Shown: positions 19,041-40,322 of the stretch, piece after piece
How positions within the stretch are numbered: position 1 is the first letter of the stretch
Layout of the letters: each line of letters starts with the position of its first letter
NCBI GenBank assembly: GCA_964561455.1
Contig: CAZLPS010000001.1
Location: 48,977 to 112,976 of the forward strand
Direction: 5' to 3'
From: an uncultured Opitutales bacterium
GTDB lineage: Bacteria; Verrucomicrobiota; Verrucomicrobiia; Opitutales; JABDGR01
DNA: 64,000 nucleotides
Notes under the pieces: model-generated
Databases searched by the model: none
What the model was told of the DNA's origin: nothing
The model's input: only the letters and a program-made list of their open reading frames with translations
Made by a program: the position numbers and the translations under genes

Positions 19041-20003
19041 ATGGCTCCGGCCTTTATCATCACGCTCGACACCGAAGGCGACAACCTTTGGTCGCGACCC
19101 CGCACGGTTACCACGCGCAATGCCGCCTCGCTGCCGGCCTTTCAAGCCTTGGCCGAAAAGTTTGGCTTTCGCCCCACTTGGCTCGTGAATTGGGAAATGG
19201 CGCACGCGCCCGCCTGCCGGGAGTTCTTGCAGGATGTGCTCGCCCGCGGCACGGGCGAAGTTGGCCTGCACTTGCACGCGTGGGACACGCCGCCGCTCGA
19301 ATCCCTCACCGGCGATGATTCGCAACACCATCCGTTTCTTGGTGAGTATCCCGAGCCGCTGATGCGGGCGAAAATGGAACGCCTTGCGGGCGCGTTGGAG
19401 GATGCGTTTCAACAACCGTTGCGCAGCCACCGGGCGGGGCGGTGGGCGTTTGACGGCCGTATCGCCCGCTGGTTGCGGGAGCATGGTTTTACAGCCGACT
19501 GCTCCGTGTGTCCCGGGATTGATTGGCGTTCCACCAAGGGCGACCCCCAGGGCACGGGCGGGCCCGATTATCGCGGCGCGCCGTCTGAACCGTATTATTT
19601 GGATGAGCGCAACGTGATTAAGCCCGCCACCAGTCCGACGACCAGCGCCGTTCTCGAAGTGCCCATGACCATCGGCCAGCCCAGGGCAAACTTGACCGGG
19701 TTTGTGGTCGAAGCTTTTTCCAAACGGCACTATTGGCTTCGGCCGAATGGCCGCAACGGTGCGGCGCTGCGCGAACGGGTGGACGAAGCTGTCGCGGACG
19801 GCCGCGCGCACTTAATGGTTATGCTGCATTCGTCCGAATTGATGCCCGGTGGCAGCCCAACCTTTTCCGACGATTCCGCCATTGCGCGCCTGAACGAAGA
19901 CCTTGCGGCCTTGCTGGCCCACGCCCGCGCCCGCGGCTGCCGTGGCCGCACCCTGGGCGAATTCGCCGCCGAGTGGCGCGCCATGTCGGCCCTGGCCGTT
20001 TAA
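19041..20003 (+). CDS. Polysaccharide deacetylase, WalW-like
   Basis: ITLDTEGDNLW, GLHLHAWDTPP, HRAGRW, MLHSSELMPGGSP. Confidence 0.8.
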   Translation: MAPAFIITLDTEGDNLWSRPRTVTTRNAASLPAFQALAEKFGFRPTWLVNWEMAHAPACREFLQDVLARGTGEVGLHLHAWDTPPLESLTGDDSQHHPFLGEYPEPLMRAKMERLAGALEDAFQQPLRSHRAGRWAFDGRIARWLREHGFTADCSVCPGIDWRSTKGDPQGTGGPDYRGAPSEPYYLDERNVIKPATSPTTSAVLEVPMTIGQPRANLTGFVVEAFSKRHYWLRPNGRNGAALRERVDEAVADGRAHLMVMLHSSELMPGGSPTFSDDSAIARLNEDLAALLAHARARGCRGRTLGEFAAEWRAMSALAV

Positions 20004-22165: not shown

Positions 22166-22175
22166 ATAATTGAAA

Positions 22176-23228
22176 ATGCTTGCAGAAACCCAAAGGACCA
22201 AGGTGAAAGTTCTCGCCCTTATCCCCGCCCGCTCCGGCTCCAAGGGCATTCCCCATAAGAATGTGCAATGGGTTGCGGGCAAGCCGCTCCTTGCGCATTC
22301 CATTGTGCAGGCGCGCGCCAGTGCCGTCGTGGACCGGGTGATTGTCAGCACCGACAGCGAGGCCTACGCCGCCATTGCGCGGCAATACGGGGCCGAAACA
22401 CCGTTCCTGCGGCCGGCGGATATCTCCGGTGATTCCGCCACGGACTGGCAGGTTTTTCACCACGCCCTGGCCTGGTTGCGTGAACACGAAGGTCTCTGTC
22501 CGGAAATCGTGGTGCACTTGCGGCCAACCCACCCCCGGCGTGATCCCGAGGACATTACGGCTGCGGTCGAATTGCTGCTGGCCCATCCGGAGTGGGACAG
22601 CGTGCGCTCCGTTGTGTCGGCACCGCATACGCCCTATAAAATGTGGCTCAAGAATGACGATGGCACCCTGCGGCCCGTGGCCACTTGCGCCCACCCCGAG
22701 GCGTACAATGAGCCTCGCCAGGTCTTGCCGCCCACCTACCTTCAGAACGCCGCCATTGATGTCACCCGCGCCGCAACGGTTTTGGCAAAACACTCCATGA
22801 CTGGGAACAAAATCGGCGCTTTTTTAATGACGGAATTTCAGGACATTGACACGCCGGAGGAACTGGAACAGGCCGCCCGCGCCTGGCACCAGCCCGGCCG
22901 CACCCCTGCGGGCAAGACTTTTGTCTTCGATATTGATGGTGTGATTGCCCGCCTCACCCCGGACAATGACTACCGGCGCTCCGAGCCGCACGAGGAAGTC
23001 ATCGCCATCGTGCGCCAGTTGCACCGCTGCGGCAATCGCATCATTTTGTACACGGCTCGCGGATTTGTCACCGGGATTGACTGGCGGGAACTCACCTCCC
23101 GGCAATTGGCCGCTTGGAATGTTCCCTACCACGAATTGCATTTTGGCAAGCCGGCCGGGGATTTCTATGTGGATGACCGGATGGTTCCCCTCAGTGAGAT
23201 TCTCCGCATTTCCGCTGGCGACGCTTAA
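22176..23228 (+). CDS. Acylneuraminate cytidylyltransferase (NeuA-like) fused to a C-terminal HAD phosphatase
   Basis: IPARSGSKGIPHKN, STDS, FLRPADISGD, HLRPTHP, DIDT; then FVFDIDGVI, YTARG, GKPAGDFYVDDR. Confidence 0.85.
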   Translation: MLAETQRTKVKVLALIPARSGSKGIPHKNVQWVAGKPLLAHSIVQARASAVVDRVIVSTDSEAYAAIARQYGAETPFLRPADISGDSATDWQVFHHALAWLREHEGLCPEIVVHLRPTHPRRDPEDITAAVELLLAHPEWDSVRSVVSAPHTPYKMWLKNDDGTLRPVATCAHPEAYNEPRQVLPPTYLQNAAIDVTRAATVLAKHSMTGNKIGAFLMTEFQDIDTPEELEQAARAWHQPGRTPAGKTFVFDIDGVIARLTPDNDYRRSEPHEEVIAIVRQLHRCGNRIILYTARGFVTGIDWRELTSRQLAAWNVPYHELHFGKPAGDFYVDDRMVPLSEILRISAGDA

Positions 23229-23274
23229 TTTTGCGCGTCTTTGCCTGCCGGCATTCTTTCCTAATCCCACCGCC

Positions 23275-24765
23275 ATGAATATACCAAACTCACCTCTGTT
23301 CATCTTTGAAATGGCCAACAACCATCAAGGCAGCCTTGATCATGGCCTGCGCATCATCCAGGAAATGTCGGCGATCGTGCGCCGCTACGGCATCCGCGGC
23401 GCGGTCAAGCTGCAGTATCGCGATTTGGCCTCTTTCATTCACCCCCGGCACCGGCACGGTGAGCACAAACACATTAAGCGCTTCTTGCAAACAGAGCTGA
23501 GCCGGGAGAATTACCACACGCTGGCCCAAGCCATTCGCGACCAGGGCATGATCTCCATTTGCACTCCGTTTGATGAACCCTCAGTCGAGGACCTGGTGAA
23601 CCATGGCATTGAAATTATCAAGGTTGCATCCTGCAGTGCCAACGATTGGCCACTCCTTGAGCGCATGGTGCAGGCGCAAAAGCCCATCATTTGCTCCACC
23701 GGCGGTTTGCGCATTGAGGAAATTGATCAGGTGGTCAATTTCTTTGAGCACCGGCACGTGGCGCGTCTGTCGCTTTTGCATTGTGTCGGCCGCTACCCAA
23801 CCCCCGACGACGGCATCCAGCTCAATTTCATGGAACGCATGATGCGCCGCTATCACCAGCACGAGGTGGGATACTCCGGCCATGAAGCGCCGGATAACAT
23901 TCACGTGGCTCTGTGCGCGGTGGCCAAGGGCGCCAGGATCCTTGAGCGTCATGTGGGTGTGGCCACTGAATCCATTAAGCTCAACGCCTACTCCATGAAT
24001 CCGGCGCAGACCGCCCTTTGGGTGGAAGCCGCGCTCAAGGCCCTCGTCATCGGTGGGGACCCGGCAGGCGAGAAGCATGTCACGGAAGATGAAAGTGAGT
24101 CACTGCTTTCGCTGCGCCGTGGTGCGTTTGCCGCCCAACCGGTCGCCCAGGGCGAGTTGCTGACCCGGGAGAAGGTCTTTTTTGCGATGCCCTGCCAGCC
24201 GGGTCAATCCACGGCCACTGAATGGCAGCCCACCATGGTCGCTTCCCGCGATTATGCCGTCGGCGACGCCCTGGGGGAACGCCGCAAGACCGGACTGACC
24301 AACCAGTTACGCGCCATCATCCACCAGGCCAAGGGGCTGCTGCGTGAGGCCCGCATTGAAATTGGACCGAATTTCACCATCGAAATGTCCCATCATTATG
24401 GCGCGGAAAAGTTTCGCTCCTGGGGTGCCCTGATCGTGAATCTGATCAACCGGGAGTATTGCAAAAAGTTGATCATCATGCTCCCGGCCCAGCGCCATCC
24501 CAACCATCGCCATTTAAAAAAGGAGGAAACTTTTCAATTGTTGTGGGGTGACTTGGAAGCCGTCCTCGATGGCGTGACCCACCGTTTGCTGCCGGGCGAC
24601 ATGCTGCTCATCAATCGCGGCCAATGGCACCAGTTCACCACCGTGGGTGGATGCATCTTTGAAGAGGTTTCCACCACCCACATTATCGGCGACAGTTATT
24701 ACGAAGACCCCGCCATTGCCGTTCTGGACCCCATCCGCCGCAAAACGGTGCTGGATATGTGGTAA
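23275..24765 (+). CDS. Nonulosonate synthase (NeuB family) with SAF domain and C-terminal D-lyxose-isomerase-like cupin
   Basis: FEMANNHQG, KLQY, TPFDE, KVAS, STGG, LHCVGRYPT, GYSGHE, LERH; C-terminal YCKKLIIMLPAQRHPNHRHLKKEETF...WHQF. Confidence 0.87.
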   Translation: MNIPNSPLFIFEMANNHQGSLDHGLRIIQEMSAIVRRYGIRGAVKLQYRDLASFIHPRHRHGEHKHIKRFLQTELSRENYHTLAQAIRDQGMISICTPFDEPSVEDLVNHGIEIIKVASCSANDWPLLERMVQAQKPIICSTGGLRIEEIDQVVNFFEHRHVARLSLLHCVGRYPTPDDGIQLNFMERMMRRYHQHEVGYSGHEAPDNIHVALCAVAKGARILERHVGVATESIKLNAYSMNPAQTALWVEAALKALVIGGDPAGEKHVTEDESESLLSLRRGAFAAQPVAQGELLTREKVFFAMPCQPGQSTATEWQPTMVASRDYAVGDALGERRKTGLTNQLRAIIHQAKGLLREARIEIGPNFTIEMSHHYGAEKFRSWGALIVNLINREYCKKLIIMLPAQRHPNHRHLKKEETFQLLWGDLEAVLDGVTHRLLPGDMLLINRGQWHQFTTVGGCIFEEVSTTHIIGDSYYEDPAIAVLDPIRRKTVLDMW

Positions 24766-24807
24766 CCGCCAGCGGCCCGGATTTGCGCGGCGACCGTGGA
24801 CAACCTC

Positions 24808-26103
24808 ATGAAGATCGGCATATGCATCGCGGATTACGATATCCGCAACGACTTGGCCGACTTGCTGCGCGGCCTCGCGCGGCGGCACGAGGTGGTGGTG
24901 CTGGCCACCCCGATTGAACTGCCGCGAGTCGGCGAGGGGCCCTGGGAGAAGCGTCCGGTCCGGATAAAAATCAGCTGGTGGAACCGGATGTGGCTGGCGC
25001 TATTCGGTTATTTGGGCCGGGTGCCGGCCAGCAAGGACAACTTTTTGCAAAATTCGTTTTTCCTTTTGCAAAAACTTCCGCCCGCCCGCCGGGGCCGCGC
25101 CGCGGCCTGGCTGCGGCTGCGGGCAAAATTGCCGCCGCTGTTTACGTTTGACCGGTTGTTGAAGCTCTTGCGCGGGTCCGTCGCCAGCATGGATGATCTC
25201 GACGCGATTCTCTTCATTACCAATGTCGCCAGCCCCGAGTTATTGGCGCAAGCTCTGCGGATGGGCCGCCCCTGTGCGGCGTACGTTTACAGTTGGGATC
25301 ATGCGCCGAAATTTGACCGCTTCTCCCGGCGGGTGGCCTGCTATTTCACCTGGAATCAAGGGATCGCCGACGATTTGGCCCGGTTGCAGGATATCCCCTT
25401 GTCGCACACCCGGCCTGTCGGCGCCACCCAGTTGGTTTTTATTCGCGACTACTTGAATTCTCCAGCAGCGCGCCGCCGGAAGATTCCATTCCGTTATGCC
25501 TATTACGGCTGCGCCATCGCCGTGCCGGGCCTCGTCGAGCAGGAAGTCCGTTTGGTCGAATGGCTGGCGGACGAACTGGCGCTTGAAGACCCCGGACTGA
25601 AACTCATTGTCCGCCCCTATCCCATGTTGCGTGACACGACTTCTTTTCGCCGCCTCCGCCAGCGGCCCAACGTGGTTTTCGACGATGAATACCGCGAGGA
25701 AGTGCAGGAGCGGGTGATTCCCCGCGTGGACGTGTTTTCCAAGTTCAACCTGCAGGAGCATGCTGAGTTATTCTTTCATTGCGGCACCACCATGGGACTC
25801 GAGGGCGCCTATTTCGACGCCCCGATATTCTTTCTCGCCCCTGAGGATGTGGATTTTGGCGTGCTGCCCGGCGGTGACCTGCATGTCAGCCGGTTCTTTC
25901 GCACCTTTCATAATGAAAAGTACCTGATGTTGTCCCGCTTTCCCAACGTCGTGGTGCGGGCGGCGGATTTGCGCCCGCGGATCCGCGCCGCCCTCGCCGG
26001 CCGCGAATCCTATTTGCCCTACAATCGGGCCGTGCGTGCCGAAACGCCCTTGCGATCCATGGATGAAATTGCCGGGGACATTGCCTCCGGCCTCCAGCCA
26101 TGA
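24808..26103 (+). CDS. Hypothetical GT-B-like protein, candidate nonulosonate transferase
   Basis: YSWD, LIVRPYP, GTTMGLEGAYFDAP resemble GT-B/glycerophosphotransferase-like folds; position directly after the synthase. Confidence 0.5.
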   Translation: MKIGICIADYDIRNDLADLLRGLARRHEVVVLATPIELPRVGEGPWEKRPVRIKISWWNRMWLALFGYLGRVPASKDNFLQNSFFLLQKLPPARRGRAAAWLRLRAKLPPLFTFDRLLKLLRGSVASMDDLDAILFITNVASPELLAQALRMGRPCAAYVYSWDHAPKFDRFSRRVACYFTWNQGIADDLARLQDIPLSHTRPVGATQLVFIRDYLNSPAARRRKIPFRYAYYGCAIAVPGLVEQEVRLVEWLADELALEDPGLKLIVRPYPMLRDTTSFRRLRQRPNVVFDDEYREEVQERVIPRVDVFSKFNLQEHAELFFHCGTTMGLEGAYFDAPIFFLAPEDVDFGVLPGGDLHVSRFFRTFHNEKYLMLSRFPNVVVRAADLRPRIRAALAGRESYLPYNRAVRAETPLRSMDEIAGDIASGLQP

Positions 26104-27263
26104 ACCGGCCCGATAAGATTGGGGTGGTTTGCGAGAAATTTCCGCTGGTGTCCCAGACTTTTGTACTGCGACACGCGGAAGTCCTCGATGCCGAAATATT
26201 TGCCTTGGAACTCACCGCGACAATCGAGGATCCGGCCTGGGCCGGCCGGGTGCATGCGGCGGGCATCACTCCGGGCCGCAATCGCAGGCGCGTGCTGGCA
26301 GAGCGGATCTACCGGCGCTTGTTCCACCCGCCCTGGCGGATATGGCTGCCCGGCGAACAGCGCAAATTATGCGACCAATTGCGGGAACGGAATATCGCCG
26401 CCGTCATCGTGGAGTTCGGCCAATGTCTGGTGGGTTGCGGCGAACGGATCTTCGATGCGGGGGCTCGCGTGGTGCCTTATTTTCACGGAGTGGACCTGTC
26501 GGCCCATTTGCGCGATGCGCGCTATGTCCGCAAATTGCGCCCGCTGTTGCATCGCTGCGCCGACGCCATTGTCGTGAATGAGCTAATGATTGGCCGCCTG
26601 CGAAACATCTTTGGCTTCCGCGGCCGGATTCACTTCGTTCCCTGTGCGGCGGATGATGCCTTGTTTGCCCATCAATCCCGCGCACCACATCCCGGTTTCA
26701 AGTTTCTGTTCGTTGGCCGTCTGGTCGAGAAAAAGGGCGTGGTCGAATTGGTCCGCGCCTTCGCCCGCTATGTCGAACTGGGCGGGCAGGGTGATTTGGT
26801 TATTGCGGGCGATGGCCCCGAGCGGGCCAGCGCCGAGGAGGCCGTCCTCAAAGCTGCCTTGGCTTCCCGGGTGGATTTCAAGGGTCCCGTGACCCATGAA
26901 CACGCGGCCACATTGATGCATGCGGCGGACATTTATGTTCAGCATTCCAAAGTGGGCGCTGACGGCGACGAGGAAGGCTGGCCCGTGGCAATTGCGGAAG
27001 CTTGCCTGGCCGGTTTACCGGTGGTGGCCACTTGCCACGCAGGCATTCCCCAGCAAGTCATTTCCGGTCAGACCGGCTGGTTGGTTCAGGAAGGCGATAT
27101 CGAAGGCATGGCGCGCGCCATGCTTGCCTTGGCGCAATCGGCGGCCTTGCGCGAGACCTATGGTCGGGCCGCCCAGCAGCATATCCGGAAATTTTGCGAC
27201 TCTGCGGCCTATCGCATCCGTTTACGTGAAATCCTGCATAACCCGGAGTCCGCCACGTCGTGA
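26100..27263 (+). CDS. GT4 glycosyltransferase (WcaL-like)
   Basis: FPLVSQTF, FHGVD, VGRLVEKKG, EEGWPVAIAEA, HAGIP. Confidence 0.88.
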   Translation: MNRPDKIGVVCEKFPLVSQTFVLRHAEVLDAEIFALELTATIEDPAWAGRVHAAGITPGRNRRRVLAERIYRRLFHPPWRIWLPGEQRKLCDQLRERNIAAVIVEFGQCLVGCGERIFDAGARVVPYFHGVDLSAHLRDARYVRKLRPLLHRCADAIVVNELMIGRLRNIFGFRGRIHFVPCAADDALFAHQSRAPHPGFKFLFVGRLVEKKGVVELVRAFARYVELGGQGDLVIAGDGPERASAEEAVLKAALASRVDFKGPVTHEHAATLMHAADIYVQHSKVGADGDEEGWPVAIAEACLAGLPVVATCHAGIPQQVISGQTGWLVQEGDIEGMARAMLALAQSAALRETYGRAAQQHIRKFCDSAAYRIRLREILHNPESATS

Positions 27264-34803: not shown

Positions 34804-34880
34804 AGATATGTTCGCCTGCATTGCCGGCTCCGGGCCTGCTTTGCTGATTTTTGTTTCGGTCGATTTTTGGTCGCATGCAG

Positions 34881-35939
34881 ATGAGTTCCGCGTCCGCCGC
34901 CCCACGCCGTTGCCTGTTGTACCTGTCCATCAGTGACGGACTGGATGCACGGACCAACAAAGAGGTGACGACCCTTAGTCGGTCGTTTGTCGTTGATTTT
35001 GTCGGGGTCTCCAATGGGGGTGCCGCTCCTTTTTTTTCCGCTCACGCGCGCCGCGTGGAGGTCATTCAAGGCCGCAGCCGCTCGCCGTGGACCCTGGCGA
35101 AATTATGGTGGCGGGTTTTATCCCTCCGCTGGCATAATCGCTACGATTCCGTCCACGTGATTAATGAGGATCTCTACTTGGTGTTGCTGCCTTTGCTCCT
35201 GGGCCAGCATGTCGTGTTGGATGTGTTTGATTCGTCATTTTTGAAATGGCGCGTGCCGGGTTGGGTCGTATGGCTTGGCCGGCGCATCTGCTATTGCCTG
35301 CCCGCTAAAATCCTTGTCACGGACGACGAGCGCGCGGGCCTAATGCCGCACTTTGTCCGCCCCAAACTGCTGGTGGTGCCCAACTATCCCTTCCGGTATG
35401 ATGGACCGGTGCGCCCGCGCGACCCGGCTGTGGTGCGTATACTTTACGCCGGATCGTTGGTGGCCCGCCGGGGCACCGCTTTTCTTGAGCAATTGCTGGC
35501 TGTTGCCGGAGACGTGCGCGTGGTCATGGCCGGTTGGATTCGGGATGAGCCGACGCGTGCGCTGTCGCAACATCCGCGGGTCGAATGGCTGGGATTGCTG
35601 CCCCAGCGGGAAACCATTGAGCAGGCAACGCGGTGTGATTTTATTCTTTGCCATTACGAGCCGAACAATTTGAACAATATTTACGCCAGCCCCAATAAGA
35701 TTTATGACGCCATTCAGGCGAATTGTGGCATCATCATCAATCCCGAGGCGCGTATTTCCCGTTTTGTCCGCGAACATGGGCTCGGTGTCGTGTTGGATGC
35801 GTTTGCGCCTGCAGATCTGGCGGTCGTGGCGCAGTCCTTGCGCGCGTTTAAGCTGGCCCACCGACCGGACCCCGGCCTGCGCGAGCAATTCTTGTGGGAG
35901 AAGGTTGAAGGTCTTCTATTGTCAGCCCATGGATCCTGA
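34881..35939 (+). CDS. Glycosyltransferase (GT4-like)
   Basis: VVPNYP, YAGSL...RG, SPNKIYDAI. Confidence 0.75.
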   Translation: MSSASAAPRRCLLYLSISDGLDARTNKEVTTLSRSFVVDFVGVSNGGAAPFFSAHARRVEVIQGRSRSPWTLAKLWWRVLSLRWHNRYDSVHVINEDLYLVLLPLLLGQHVVLDVFDSSFLKWRVPGWVVWLGRRICYCLPAKILVTDDERAGLMPHFVRPKLLVVPNYPFRYDGPVRPRDPAVVRILYAGSLVARRGTAFLEQLLAVAGDVRVVMAGWIRDEPTRALSQHPRVEWLGLLPQRETIEQATRCDFILCHYEPNNLNNIYASPNKIYDAIQANCGIIINPEARISRFVREHGLGVVLDAFAPADLAVVAQSLRAFKLAHRPDPGLREQFLWEKVEGLLLSAHGS

Positions 35940-35968: not shown

Positions 35969-37129
35969 ATGTCCAAGCCTAAAATTGTTCTGGTCGCCGG
36001 TACCCGGCCCGAAGTCATCAAGCTCGCTCCCGTCTATTTCGCTTTGCGCGAAAGTCGGTTGCTCGAGCCAGTGCTGCTGTCCTCGGGCCAGCACCGCCAA
36101 ATGATTGACCAGGCTTTTGCGGTTTTTGGTTTAAAGCCTGATCTCGACCTGAATTTGATGCAGCCCGGCCAGACTTTGCCGGATTTGACCGCCCGGGTTG
36201 TCACCGGCATCTCAGCGGCCTTGCGCAATCTGCAGCCCGCCGCCATCCTCGCCCAAGGTGACACCACGACGGTTCTTGGAGCGGCCTTGGCGGCGTTTTA
36301 TGAGCGTGTGCCGCTCGGTCACGTTGAAGCCGGCTTGCGTACCTACGATTTCGACGCGCCGTGGCCGGAGGAAATGAATCGCCGCCTGACCGACCCCATC
36401 GCCCGCTGGTGCTTTGCGCCCACCGGCTGGAGCGCCGCCAATTTGCGGGCGGAACGCATCCCGGACGATCGCATTCACACCACCGGCAACACGGTGGTGG
36501 ACGCGTTGTTTTGGGTGCGCGCCAAGCTCCACCATTCCCCGCTTGCCCCGGCGGAAATCGCCGCGCGCTGCGGCATTCCCACCGAGTTTTCGCAACGCTA
36601 TCTGGCGGCCAATGGCGGGCGATTTGTGCTCATCACCGGGCACCGGCGCGAATCGTTCGGCCAGGGATTTGAGAATATTTGCCGGGCCATCGCCGAGCTG
36701 GCCCGGCGGCATCCGGATGTCGGCCTTCTTTATCCAGTGCATCTCAATCCCAACGTGCAGGAGCCCGTCCATCGCCTGTTGGGCCGGAACCCCCGGGTTG
36801 CCCTAATTCCGCCGGTGGATTACGAAGATTTTATCTGGCTGATGGATCGCTGCCATTTTGTGCTCAGTGATTCCGGCGGTGTTCAGGAAGAGGCGCCCAG
36901 CTTGGGCAAGCCGGTCCTCGTTATGCGCGATACCACGGAACGGCCCGAGGGCGTTGAGGCCGGGACGTGCCGGTTGGTCGGCACCGATCCCGCCCGCATC
37001 TTGGCGGAGTCCGCCATCCTCTTGGACGATGGCGCGGCCCATGCCGCGCGTGCGCGCCTGCAAAATCCCTACGGCGATGGTACGGCCAGTCAGCGCATTC
37101 GCGCCATTTTGGAAGAATCGCTGGCCTGA
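35969..37129 (+). CDS. wecB: UDP-N-acetylglucosamine 2-epimerase (non-hydrolysing)
   Basis: GTRPEVIKLAP, GQHRQM, QGDTTT, HVEAGLRT, PEEMNR, HRRES, DSGGVQEEAP, TERPEG, NPYGDG. Confidence 0.95.
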   Translation: MSKPKIVLVAGTRPEVIKLAPVYFALRESRLLEPVLLSSGQHRQMIDQAFAVFGLKPDLDLNLMQPGQTLPDLTARVVTGISAALRNLQPAAILAQGDTTTVLGAALAAFYERVPLGHVEAGLRTYDFDAPWPEEMNRRLTDPIARWCFAPTGWSAANLRAERIPDDRIHTTGNTVVDALFWVRAKLHHSPLAPAEIAARCGIPTEFSQRYLAANGGRFVLITGHRRESFGQGFENICRAIAELARRHPDVGLLYPVHLNPNVQEPVHRLLGRNPRVALIPPVDYEDFIWLMDRCHFVLSDSGGVQEEAPSLGKPVLVMRDTTERPEGVEAGTCRLVGTDPARILAESAILLDDGAAHAARARLQNPYGDGTASQRIRAILEESLA

Positions 37130-37137
37130 TTAAACCC

Positions 37138-38391
37138 ATGAACTACGACATTTGCGTCCTCGGTCTCGGATACATCGGCCTGCCGACGGCCTCCATCTTC
37201 GCCACCAACGGGAAAAAAGTCCTCGGCGTGGATGTCGTGTCGGCGGTGGTCGAAACCATCAACGCCGGAAGAATTCACATCGAGGAGCCCGATCTCGACG
37301 TGCTCGTGTGCACTGCAGTGCAAAGCGGCAATTTGCGCGCCGGCTCCCGGCCCGAGCCGGCGGCGACCTATATTATTGCTGTGCCCACGCCCTTTCACCA
37401 GGACAGTGCCCGCCTCAAGTCCCCTGATTTGTCTTTTGTCGAACAGGCCACCCGTTCGCTGGCCCCGGTGGTTCCGTTTGGAGCCTTGGTGATCCTGGAG
37501 TCCACCAGCCCAGTCGGTACCACCGCGAAGGTCCGCGATTGGCTGGCCGCAGAACTCTGCCGGGTTCGCCCCGACGAAGCCTCCGCGTTGGAAAACTCAT
37601 TGCGTTTTGCGCATTGCCCGGAACGGATTTTGCCCGGCAAGATGTTGAAGGAATTGGTGGCGAATGACCGCATTGCCGGCGGGCTCACCCCCGACGCCGC
37701 CCAGGCGGCAAAGTCCCTCTACCAGGCGTTTTGCACCGGCGAGATTTTTCTGACCGACGCCCGTACCGCCGAAATGGCGAAGCTCACCGAGAATTCCTTT
37801 CGCGACGTCAACATTGCCTTTGCCAATGAACTTTCCCTGATTTGCGAACAACTCAAAATTGACGTATGGGAATTGATTCGACTGGCCAACCGGCACCCGC
37901 GCGTAAAAATACTTCAACCCGGTCCGGGCGTCGGCGGCCATTGTATTGCGGTGGACCCGTGGTTCATTGTTGACGCGGCGCCGGGGTTGGCTCGGCTGAT
38001 CCGGACCGCGCGCGAGGTCAACGACAGCAAGCCCGAGTATGTCATCGCTTCGATCATGCAGGCGGCGGCAAAATTCCCCCGGCCCGTCATTGCCTGTTTG
38101 GGTTTGGCGTTTAAGGCGGACGTGGATGACCTGCGCGAAAGCCCGGCGGTGGATATTGTCGGGCAACTGGCTTTGGAAGGGGTGGGAGAGGTTTTGGCGG
38201 TGGAACCACACATTAAAGCCCTGCCAGTCGCGTTGGCGGAGCAGGGCAAAGTAACGTTGACGGATGCCACCACCGCCTTGGCCCGCGCGAATGTGGTGGT
38301 TTTGCTCGTGAGCCACCGGGCGTTTGATGACATTGACCGGCGGAAGCTGGAAGGAAAAACAGTCATCGATACCCGCGGCTTTTGGCGATGA
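37138..38391 (+). CDS. wecC: UDP-N-acetyl-D-mannosamine dehydrogenase
   Basis: GLGYIGLPTA, VPTP, HCPERILPG, ENSFRDVNIAFANE, GGHCIAVDPWF, DDLRESPA. Confidence 0.93.
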   Translation: MNYDICVLGLGYIGLPTASIFATNGKKVLGVDVVSAVVETINAGRIHIEEPDLDVLVCTAVQSGNLRAGSRPEPAATYIIAVPTPFHQDSARLKSPDLSFVEQATRSLAPVVPFGALVILESTSPVGTTAKVRDWLAAELCRVRPDEASALENSLRFAHCPERILPGKMLKELVANDRIAGGLTPDAAQAAKSLYQAFCTGEIFLTDARTAEMAKLTENSFRDVNIAFANELSLICEQLKIDVWELIRLANRHPRVKILQPGPGVGGHCIAVDPWFIVDAAPGLARLIRTAREVNDSKPEYVIASIMQAAAKFPRPVIACLGLAFKADVDDLRESPAVDIVGQLALEGVGEVLAVEPHIKALPVALAEQGKVTLTDATTALARANVVVLLVSHRAFDDIDRRKLEGKTVIDTRGFWR

Positions 38392-40322
38392 ATGTGTTCC
38401 GTAAATCGTGGTTGATTTTTAAATTTCTCGGGCCCGGCTGGGTGGCCTTCCGCGTGGGGTATGCCTTGCGCCGCCGCCTCGGCGCGTTGCGCCGGAATTC
38501 GCCCTGCCAACCGTGGAGCATGATTCCGGCAGTAGCCCGGCTGCCGGATTGGCTCCGCACCCCGGCCTGGCCAGCCCGGGGAAAAGAGTGGGGGAGTCGG
38601 TGTATTGCTGAAGCGGATGGATTGTCCCTGGGCGAATTTGTGCTTTTTTCCCTTCATGCCCGCCATCTGGGACTTCCGCCGGACTGGCACCGCAACCCTT
38701 TTTCCGGCCAATCGGCGCCCCGTGGTCGCCATTGGTCGGCGTTGGGTGACTTTGCGTTCGGTGATATCAAGACCATCTGGGAGCAGAGCCGGTTCGGTTG
38801 GGCCTTTACCCTCGTGCGCGCCCATGCGCGCACGGGTGAAGCCCGGTTCGCGGACCTATTTTGGCGGCTGTTTGAAGATTGGTGCGCCCAGAACCCGCCG
38901 AATGAAGGAGTGAATTGGAAATGCGGCCAAGAGGCTACCTTTCGCCTCATGGCCGTCACTTTTGCTTTATCGCATTTCGGCCGGTTGCCGTCGGCGACGG
39001 ATGAAAGATTGCAGCTTTGGGCGCGTTTCGTCACGGCCACGGGGCAGCGCATTGAGGCCAATTTAAGCTATGCTCTCAGCCAGTCCAATAACCATGGGAT
39101 TAGTGAATGCGTCGGTTTGGTCACCGCAAGTTTGCTCGCGGAAGATTCCGTTGCTGCCCGCCGGTGGCGTGAACTGGGTTCCCGAAAATTGGCGGAGCAA
39201 CTGCACGATTTGATTTATGCCGATGGCGGCTTTTCGCAACATTCTCTCATTTACCATCGGGTGGTATTGCACGATCTTTTGTGGCTGGTGGCGCTGTGGC
39301 ACCAGGCCGGTTTGCCCCCACTGGACTGGCTGGTGCAGAAAGCTCGGATGGCGTTGGTCTTTTTGACCCGGTTGGTGGATGCAAATACAGGACTGGGCCC
39401 TCTGTACGGCTCGAATGACGGGGCCAATGTGCTCCCACTCGACGACGGTGTTTTCCTCGATATGCGCGGGGTCCTGGCCGCCGGCCACGCTTTGCTCAAC
39501 GGTGCGCGAATTTATCCGTCCGGTCCGTGGGACGAGGCGGCCTTTTGGCTGACGGGACGAGATCCCCGGCTTTTGCCGTTGCAGACCAGCGATAACCTTT
39601 CCCCACGCTGGCACGGTTTGGAGTCCGGCGTCTTTCTTTGGTCTTCGCAGGAGACACGCTTATTTCTGCGTTGTCCCGTTTTCTTCCGCCATCGGCCGGA
39701 CCATGCTGACATGCTGCATGCGGACATTACCTGGCGCGGCCGGCCGGTGGCGCATGATACCGGTTCGTATGGCTACAATACCACGGGCGTCTTTGATGGC
39801 GCGTTGGAAAAAGCCGAAGCCCATAACTTGCTCATGATCGAGGGTCGCGAAACGCTCGAGAAGGCCGGTCGTTTTCTTTGTTTGCCTTGGCCCACCGGCA
39901 CGACGCAGTGGTCGGAGGCGGACCAAAGTTTTCGGGCCACCCATGACGGCTACCGCGCCGCCGCCCGGGTGGAACGGAGAGTATTTTCCCCTCGCGCCGG
40001 CGTATTCCGCCTCACCGACCGGGTGGAATTGCGCCACGCCGGCCGGGTCCGTTTGCACTGGCTCCTGGCGGATGCAGACTGGAAACTCGATACTGTGGCC
40101 CGGACGCTCACGGCCACGCTGGCCGGCGAAAGGTTCACCCTCTCGTGGGAGTCGGATTTGCCGGTTGGTGCAGCCACGCTGGTGCGCGCCGATCCCGCTT
40201 CGGCGCGCGGCTGGTGGTCCCGCCATTACTTGGCGGCCGATCCGGCTGTTTCCTTTGCCCTCGTGTTTGACGTGCCCAAAGCCTTGACGGTGTCCACCCA
40301 GTTTGCGCCCGGGGGCGCGTGA
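38388..40322 (+). CDS. Heparinase II/III family protein
   Basis: DIKTIWEQSRF, NW...QE...R, SNNHGISE, DGG..QHS..YHR, HADMLH, DTGSY.Y, HN. Confidence 0.82.
   Translation: MNVFRKSWLIFKFLGPGWVAFRVGYALRRRLGALRRNSPCQPWSMIPAVARLPDWLRTPAWPARGKEWGSRCIAEADGLSLGEFVLFSLHARHLGLPPDWHRNPFSGQSAPRGRHWSALGDFAFGDIKTIWEQSRFGWAFTLVRAHARTGEARFADLFWRLFEDWCAQNPPNEGVNWKCGQEATFRLMAVTFALSHFGRLPSATDERLQLWARFVTATGQRIEANLSYALSQSNNHGISECVGLVTASLLAEDSVAARRWRELGSRKLAEQLHDLIYADGGFSQHSLIYHRVVLHDLLWLVALWHQAGLPPLDWLVQKARMALVFLTRLVDANTGLGPLYGSNDGANVLPLDDGVFLDMRGVLAAGHALLNGARIYPSGPWDEAAFWLTGRDPRLLPLQTSDNLSPRWHGLESGVFLWSSQETRLFLRCPVFFRHRPDHADMLHADITWRGRPVAHDTGSYGYNTTGVFDGALEKAEAHNLLMIEGRETLEKAGRFLCLPWPTGTTQWSEADQSFRATHDGYRAAARVERRVFSPRAGVFRLTDRVELRHAGRVRLHWLLADADWKLDTVARTLTATLAGERFTLSWESDLPVGAATLVRADPASARGWWSRHYLAADPAVSFALVFDVPKALTVSTQFAPGGA

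Follow-up and report, generated by a model that had tools for sequence, protein, structure and literature searches.

Transferases are the least known step of the pathways for nonulosonic and other ulosonic acids (PMC5420450), and the question of which protein takes this step is raised by a long one-strand surface-polysaccharide locus in the genome of an uncultured Opitutales bacterium. The DNA analysed, hereafter the window, is a stretch of 64,000 nucleotides from assembly GCA_964561455.1 (contig CAZLPS010000001.1, positions 48,977 to 112,976 of the forward strand). Its gene order runs from a cytidine monophosphate (CMP)-ulosonate synthetase fused to a HAD phosphatase (CTP_transf_3-HAD), through a NeuB-like synthase fused to a cupin domain, to a gene at 24808-26103 whose protein product, P0001, belongs to an unannotated family. 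By their sequence the first two genes are the activating half and the synthase of what we call a type A cassette, the presumed donor supply, and an initial annotation had proposed the third as the missing CMP-nonulosonate transferase of the module. We consider it probable that P0001 is a soluble transferase of the GT-B fold that moves a CMP-activated ulosonic acid, the putative donor, onto the lipid-linked oligosaccharide of the O-antigen or exopolysaccharide made by this locus, the putative acceptor, with release of CMP.

The gene is real and not a chance open reading frame (ORF), given the relatives that it has. A word-indexed search of 5.8 billion proteins returned 53 family matches down to 28% identity, phmmer, run exhaustively against 1.84 billion cluster representatives, returned 223 clusters (50% identity) at E<=0.001, and an alignment of 30 sequences contains 35 invariant columns. 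The family is real and conserved, but rare, and all 53 matches are unnamed or 'hypothetical', with none carrying a Pfam domain. The full ORF spans 24796-26103 (+), within which the ATG at 24808 is the most plausible start because the N-terminus it yields, MKIG, agrees with that of the homologues. Only 42 bp separate this start from the stop of the NeuB-cupin gene (24765), the stop of the target overlaps the ATG (26100) of the downstream GT4 glycosyltransferase gene, and no transmembrane-like segment was found by a Kyte-Doolittle scan, so that the initial description of a 431-aa soluble protein directly after the synthase stands. Residues invariant in the 30 sequences include D11-x-R13-x-D15, S162-W-D-H165-x-x-K168, E246, R269-P-Y-P272, D292, H324-x-G-T-T328 and E332; over 110 diverse members the invariant core comprises S162, W163, D164, E246, Y271, P272, T328 and E332, with R269, K168, G326 and Q208 near-invariant. 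The SWDH motif, which reads SWDHP in many homologues, is positioned in the N-domain, not the C-domain. On one-genome-per-species contigs the family occurs mostly in Cytophagales and Chitinophagales (Runella, Persicitalea, Dyadobacter, Telluribacter, Neolewinella and others), as well as in some Opitutales, other Verrucomicrobiota and a few Gammaproteobacteria.

An indication of function comes from the company that the family keeps. ORFs were called and clustered in 83 loci, made up of the window, 80 genome loci and extra metagenome loci. Most often, in 37-38 loci with or without a nearby cassette, the family gene is accompanied by two GT4 genes and a hexapeptide acetyltransferase gene; next in frequency is a block of SDR, GFO/IDH/MocA, CTP_transf_3, NeuB and HAD genes (17-27 loci) that lies nearly always upstream and on the same strand. 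NeuB and CTP_transf_3 both occur within 10 kb in 23 of the 57 loci having at least 8 kb of upstream sequence, and several others are truncated where the flank ends. Among the 47 evaluable loci from outside Runella, a NeuB/CMP-synthetase module is found in 31, while 16 are without a cassette; 16 further loci are too short to judge. Cassette-linked loci are spread over the major sampled clades (Verrucomicrobiota, Pseudomonadota and Bacteroidota) in a quick maximum-likelihood tree, and ten cassette-less loci that were checked genome-wide all belong to genomes with NeuB elsewhere. The expectation of the initial annotation that homologues would be linked to neuB/neuA-type genes is therefore borne out.

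Three types of cassette are linked to the family. Type A, consisting of CTP_transf_3-HAD and NeuB-cupin, is present in the window and in loci L045, L077 and L078; type B, the most common, consists of NeuB, CTP_transf_3, GFO/IDH/MocA, SDR and HAD; and the third is a classical NeuB-NeuC-like-NeuA set at L028/L143 and, next to a distant homologue of 458 aa, in L097. The feature common to all three is a CMP-ulosonate product. Outside any polysaccharide locus, the family gene is also found in a Runella/Spirosomataceae clade (L002, L022, L026, L029, L051 and others), where its flanks are MR_MLE enolase-superfamily and beta-lactamase-family genes and a class II aldolase-SDR fusion and a xylose-isomerase-like TIM-barrel gene lie nearby; the Runella aurantiaca genome has a type B cassette located elsewhere.

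Association is also seen at the level of whole genomes. In a sample of 201 genomes from the order of Runella, NeuB was present in 115 and the family in 15; all 15 family carriers have NeuB, compared with 100 of the 186 other genomes. Short and cupin-fused NeuB loci were fetched and typed for cassette classes, which placed the family in 14 of the 22 genomes with a type A or type B1 NeuB and in one of the 179 others, counts that treat relatives as independent and whose significance is accordingly overstated. These others divide into ten genomes with a different short-NeuB cassette, none of which has the family, and the 169 remaining genomes, with a classical neuBCA set lying 6 kb upstream of the gene in the single carrier among them. 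Co-transfer on one island cannot explain several of the carriers, where the two sets of genes are not linked or lie on separate contigs. The short-NeuB cassette of the ten genomes without the family (L111-L120, from G521, G446, G520, G551, G442, G489, G428, G602, G459 and G558) is recurrent in its own right and comprises CTP_transf_3, three unknown ORFs (~285, 317 and 444 aa), SDR, HAD and NeuB genes, and ORFs of ~300 and 120 aa.

Exchange of cassettes next to a constant family gene provides a further line of evidence. Between two Opitutales genomes, locus L020 is 91.0% identical in DNA to L045 up to L020:6023 / L045:7443 and again 91.8% identical from L020:9976 / L045:9975, the right breakpoint being no more than ~20 bp from where the family gene starts. 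The segment enclosed by the breakpoints is a type B cassette of 3.95 kb in L020 and a type A cassette of 2.5 kb in L045, of which only the HAD segments are alike (70%). The same pattern of swap, at greater distance, separates the window (type A, 22170-24765) from L006 (type B, L006:4649-9971): the target is 71% identical and the flanking genes 59-79%, against 48% for CTP_transf_3 and 28% for NeuB. Because the target is kept while the cassette is exchanged, the protein belongs to the glycan backbone and not to the biosynthetic cassette. A constant transferase beside exchanged cassettes suggests that both cassettes give an equivalent donor or that the protein tolerates both, and the former would mean that two unrelated gene sets appear to make an equivalent donor sugar or CMP-sugar.

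In four loci examined in which the family was not found, the place beside the cassette is taken by other proteins. At L086, whose epimerase, CTP_transf_3-HAD and NeuB-cupin are 65-69% identical to those of the window, the next gene encodes 524 aa with a weak Capsule_synth match (E 0.003), and at L087 it encodes 371 aa matching DUF6716 (7e-6) and BFO_1060_trans (5e-7). The slot protein of L089 (462 aa) matches TIGR04396 at 4e-109 and BFO_1060_trans at 2e-22, and L137 has a 417-aa polysialyltransferase-like protein (PF07388, 2e-11) after NeuB-CTP_transf_3. The families matched are those of known or proposed CMP-ulosonate transferases, and the target therefore sits in a slot filled elsewhere by candidates for this activity. 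Within the window itself the other glycosyltransferases are all GT4, GT2-GtrA or GT9, which leaves P0001 as the only glycosyltransferase-like protein of the locus outside the families using nucleoside diphosphate (NDP) sugars or adenosine diphosphate (ADP)-heptose.

By sequence, named families do not account for the protein. A Pfam scan gave no family at E<=0.01 and none credible at E<=10 (Glyco_transf_4 reached only E 0.17), an NCBIfam search at E<=1 gave no match, sequence searches of the PDB with the single target sequence and two family profiles returned nothing usable, and matches of the 110 members to Pfam were scattered and at chance level only. When the 5.8-billion-protein set was searched with a profile of family alignment A2, only the family and one weak Pfam-less match were recovered, and no bridge to a named family. 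Membership of GT4 was rejected: five of the 110 members have a weak N-domain match and none matches Glycos_transf_1, and the conserved C-domain E-x7-E is absent from the nucleotide-binding region of P0001, whose sole E-x7-E lies outside it at 412-420. Likewise rejected were the GT-B sialyltransferases GT38, GT52 and GT80, since P0001 has no HP dipeptide, no D/E-D/E-G and no match to PF07388, PF07922 or PF11477; KpsC/KpsS (PF05159, GT107), which none of the 110 members matches and whose QxxxKD is, like HP, missing from P0001; and the UDP-GlcNAc 2-epimerase/NeuC family (PF02350). For the BFO_1060/TIGR04396 family, neither P0001 nor the distant L097 homologue reached E<=0.1 against NF046086 or TIGR04396, in a search where the slot protein of L089 produced the scores given above. 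Judged by sequence, the family falls outside these named families and is unannotated in Pfam and NCBIfam, which agrees with the initial observation that it carries neither the GT4/GT2 signatures of its neighbours nor a recognised sialyltransferase motif.

An AlphaFold2 model from the 30-sequence alignment has a mean predicted local distance difference test score (pLDDT) of 90.0 and a predicted template modelling (TM) score of 0.89, and displays the predicted hallmarks of GT-B enzymes: two Rossmann-like domains, an interdomain cleft, and C-terminal helices that cross back to the N-domain. The GT-B character noted initially is thus confidently modelled, but solved structures do not tell GT-B families apart. 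Searches with Foldseek and VIA-align gave generic GT-B matches over ~300-325 of 431 residues, headed by two uridine diphosphate (UDP)-N-acetylglucosamine (GlcNAc) 2-epimerases (19.4, 19.1), the GT4 enzyme HepE (19.2) and NeuC (18.8), followed by WaaA (17.1), TarL and TagF (16.4 and 16.3) and a polysialyltransferase (14.8), so that donor classes are not separated by them. Predicted structures point in a more specific direction: the best match (TM 0.81/0.77 over 412 of 431 residues) lies in a cluster with PF04464 (Glyphos_transf) in 70% of its members. Thirteen of the 30 nearest language-model clusters are in a group whose listed cluster has PF04464 on 45% of members, and one of the 30 mixes Capsule_synth, Epimerase_2 and Glyphos_transf. 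The PF04464 and Capsule_synth families use cytidine-nucleotide donors. The conserved loops of the target family (SWDH..K, YYGC, RPYP, GTT) also parallel those of PF04464 (tWHG...K, PTxR, HP, DYSS) in order, with 37 residues between the second and third loop in both, a correspondence established visually and with no statistic. The family does not group with a family using UDP- or guanosine diphosphate (GDP)-sugars, and its nearest annotated structural neighbours are TagF-like enzymes acting on cytidine nucleotides.

Several observations weigh against transfer of a CMP-ulosonic acid. Profile-profile comparison by hhalign of family alignments A1 and A2 with ten verrucomicrobial PF04464 proteins, two GT4 neighbour families and Epimerase_2 neighbours was non-significant in every direction, and kinship with TagF consequently rests on predicted structure and language-model features; comparison with the L086 and L087 slot proteins was also non-significant, and the printed alignments are not meaningful. 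The HP and D/E-D/E-G motifs of sialyltransferases are absent from P0001. Across 401 Verrucomicrobiota genomes the full NeuB-cupin fusion occurs in 22 besides the window's own, and in 21 of these no family member was detected, the exception having a distant member on another contig; the family is therefore not a universal partner of this cassette. No cassette lies within 10 kb in about one third of the evaluable loci, and in the one Runella clade (about 20 rows) the gene lies between enolase-superfamily and beta-lactamase-family genes. Lastly, the co-occurrence with NeuB fits a transferase that donates an ulosonic acid or one that glycosylates it. The initial proposal is supported by cassette linkage and co-occurrence as regards a CMP-nonulosonate transferase of the module, but not as regards the transferase of such modules, since the family is one of several serving these cassettes and not the sole one.

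Compatibility with the co-occurrence makes a glycosyltransferase of the same pathway with another donor the main alternative. Such an enzyme would use a UDP- or GDP-sugar, and the ulosonic acid would be its acceptor or a neighbouring residue, for example in an ulosonic-acid-bearing intermediate. The top solved-structure matches are GT4 enzymes and UDP-GlcNAc 2-epimerases, the best hhalign score, still weak, is to a GT4 neighbour family, and the commonest neighbours are the GT4 and acetyltransferase genes, found irrespective of the cassette; an acceptor role would suit the NeuB co-occurrence equally. We nevertheless regard this explanation as unlikely, although it deserves to be kept in view, because the GT4 resemblance stops at weak N-domain matches in a few members and the E-x7-E signature is missing, because it would leave the window's locus without a transferase for its CMP-sugar, all other glycosyltransferases being GT4, GT2 or GT9, and because the slot elsewhere holds KpsC/S-, BFO_1060- or polysialyltransferase-like proteins. 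A different option is that of a biosynthetic GT-B enzyme, a nucleotide-sugar hydrolase or 2-epimerase like NeuC, LegG or PseG that frees the hexose condensed by NeuB. This is improbable, as the type A cassette was found without the family in all but one of the other Verrucomicrobiota genomes, three enzymatically different cassettes are linked to the family and one of them (L143, L097) already has a NeuC-like gene, no member of the 110 shows even a weak Epimerase_2 match, and the phosphatase domain in the cassette speaks for a route through a sugar phosphate, for which no hydrolase is required. Least credible is a TagF/TagB-type phosphotransferase adding glycerol- or ribitol-phosphate from a cytidine diphosphate (CDP)-alditol, which would agree with the closest predicted-structure cluster, with many language-model neighbours and with a TagF-like motif order (W-H near the end of the N-domain, a C-beta1 loop, a P-containing loop 37 residues on and an S/T-rich loop), but neither the window nor two fully annotated loci lacking a cassette showed a gene for CDP-glycerol or CDP-ribitol synthesis, the sole recurrent cytidylyltransferase neighbour is CTP_transf_3, and the PF04464 profile matches one of 110 members (E 0.008) and not P0001, with hhalign probabilities below 7%.

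For a CMP-ulosonate transferase the following mechanism can be proposed. The donor, supplied by the two genes directly upstream, would be a CMP-activated 3-deoxy-2-ulosonic acid, probably CMP-Kdn or a sugar closely related to it, and the GT-B enzyme would be soluble and peripheral to the membrane. In the C-domain the loops R-P-Y-P and G-T-T, together with E332, may bind the phosphate and ribose of CMP, whereas the acceptor would be held in the N-domain, by the loops D-x-R-x-D and S-W-D-H...K, with the S-W-D-H region supplying the catalytic base. The acceptor is presumed to be an undecaprenyl-linked oligosaccharide, possibly at a residue of N-acetylmannosamine (ManNAc) or its uronic acid (ManNAcA), a suggestion made because genes for these sugars occur in the window's locus and beside many family members, and by analogy with Tannerella forsythia. 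By the same analogy, the window's 2-epimerase and dehydrogenase genes may supply this residue; an Epimerase_2 neighbour is present in 22 family loci. More speculatively, the hexapeptide acetyltransferase adjacent in many loci could O-acetylate the sugar.

The arrangement of a TagB-like GT-B transferase after a CMP-nonulosonate cassette is known from T. forsythia, and what is unannotated here is the sequence family. In that species the transferases for pseudaminic (Pse) and legionaminic (Leg) acid are TagB-like GT-B proteins of 442-445 aa encoded just downstream of the CMP-nonulosonate genes; Tanf_01245 and TFUB4_00887, of the BFO_1060 family (NF046086), are genetically validated as transferases of Pse/Leg derivatives, and their acceptor is ManNAcA (PMC5420450). 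P0001 resembles these enzymes as a soluble GT-B protein of about 440 aa, in the position of its gene directly downstream of CMP-nonulosonate genes and in the presence of ManNAc(A) genes in the locus. It differs from them in matching neither NF046086 nor TIGR04396, in lacking their HP and D/E-D/E-G motifs, and in its presumed donor, an amino-free sugar of the Kdn type as opposed to Pse or Leg. From TagF, TagB and TarL (PF04464) it is set apart by the lack of significant sequence or profile similarity, by SWDH, RPYP and GTT standing where those enzymes have WHG, HP and DYSS, and by a CMP-ulosonate in place of a CDP-alditol context. KpsC/KpsS (PF05159) and the families GT38, GT52 and GT80 are GT-B enzymes that use CMP-activated 3-deoxy-2-ulosonic acids, and in other genomes the corresponding slot next to related cassettes is filled by a weakly KpsC/S-like protein and by a GT38-like one.

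We know of no characterised bacterial Kdn transferase, and a literature search found no paper describing one; for the teichulosonic acid of Streptomyces, only the cluster name SCO4873-SCO4882 was found. It is conceivable, at somewhat less than an even chance, that the family represents a new glycosyltransferase family for amino-free ulosonic acids (Kdn), the first of the Kdn type from bacteria, with type A and type B cassettes as alternative routes to the same CMP-sugar. If confirmed, CMP-ulosonate transfer by this family would allow some hundreds of genes, most of them in Bacteroidota and Verrucomicrobiota, to be annotated, and would provide a tool for chemoenzymatic glycosylation of the Kdn type. 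The hypothesis is directly testable, as the motifs are invariant and mutable and cultivable, non-pathogenic carriers exist in Persicitalea, Telluribacter, Rhabdobacter, Dyadobacter, Neolewinella and Runella; examples are Persicitalea jodogahamensis KCTC 12866, Telluribacter humicola KCTC 42819 and Neolewinella antarctica DSM 105096.

The genes of the window on which these considerations draw are collected in Table 1.

Table 1. Genes of the presumed ulosonic acid module and associated functions in the window
Feature	Coordinates	Strand	Evidence or remark
CMP-ulosonate synthetase (CTP_transf_3) fused to HAD phosphatase	22170..23228	+	PF02348 4e-20; PseF-like 2.5e-37; EcbF-BcbF phosphatase 2.7e-9
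NeuB-like synthase with C-terminal cupin (lyxose/mannose-isomerase-like)	23275..24765	+	PF03102 3e-44; Cupin_2 3.5e-8; NeuB_NnaB 1.6e-44
Target gene (P0001), candidate CMP-ulosonate transferase	24808..26103	+	431-aa soluble GT-B protein, unannotated family
GT4 glycosyltransferase	26100..27263	+	68% identity to L006 counterpart, conserved backbone
UDP-GlcNAc 2-epimerase (WecB-type) and UDP-ManNAc/UDP-glucose dehydrogenase-family gene	35969..38391	+	

Upstream of the cassette the locus contains Wzy_C-type membrane proteins, a UDP-glucose/GDP-mannose-family dehydrogenase, a deacetylase-like ORF, a GDP-mannose pyrophosphorylase and an NDP-sugar epimerase/dehydratase. Downstream of the target come, in order, two GT4 genes, a GT9 gene, a MurJ-like flippase, a GT4 gene, a GT2-GtrA gene, a Wzy_C protein and a divergent GT4 gene, then the WecB-type 2-epimerase, a UDP-glucose/GDP-mannose-family dehydrogenase, a heparinase II/III-like gene and a further GT4 gene, and finally a PglD-like acetyltransferase, an acyl cassette and aminotransferase/dehydratase genes. 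Two ORFs with no Pfam match of their own were considered as candidate transferases and rejected. The first (34851-35939, 362 aa), whose AlphaFold2 model has a pLDDT of 89.9, falls in a divergent GT4 family that recurs as a neighbour in 20 loci; of 16 members of that family, 11 match Glyco_trans_1_4 weakly. The second (19041-20003, 320 aa) has language-model neighbours that are polysaccharide-deacetylase-like, and is missing from the syntenic locus L006. The heparinase II/III-like protein, encoded at 38382-40322, lies within a biosynthetic locus, and a similar gene occurs near the family gene in L001. In two loci the family domain is found inside longer ORFs, L098:8529-10595 (688 aa) and L096:10441-12219 (592 aa), which may be fusions or over-extended ORF calls.

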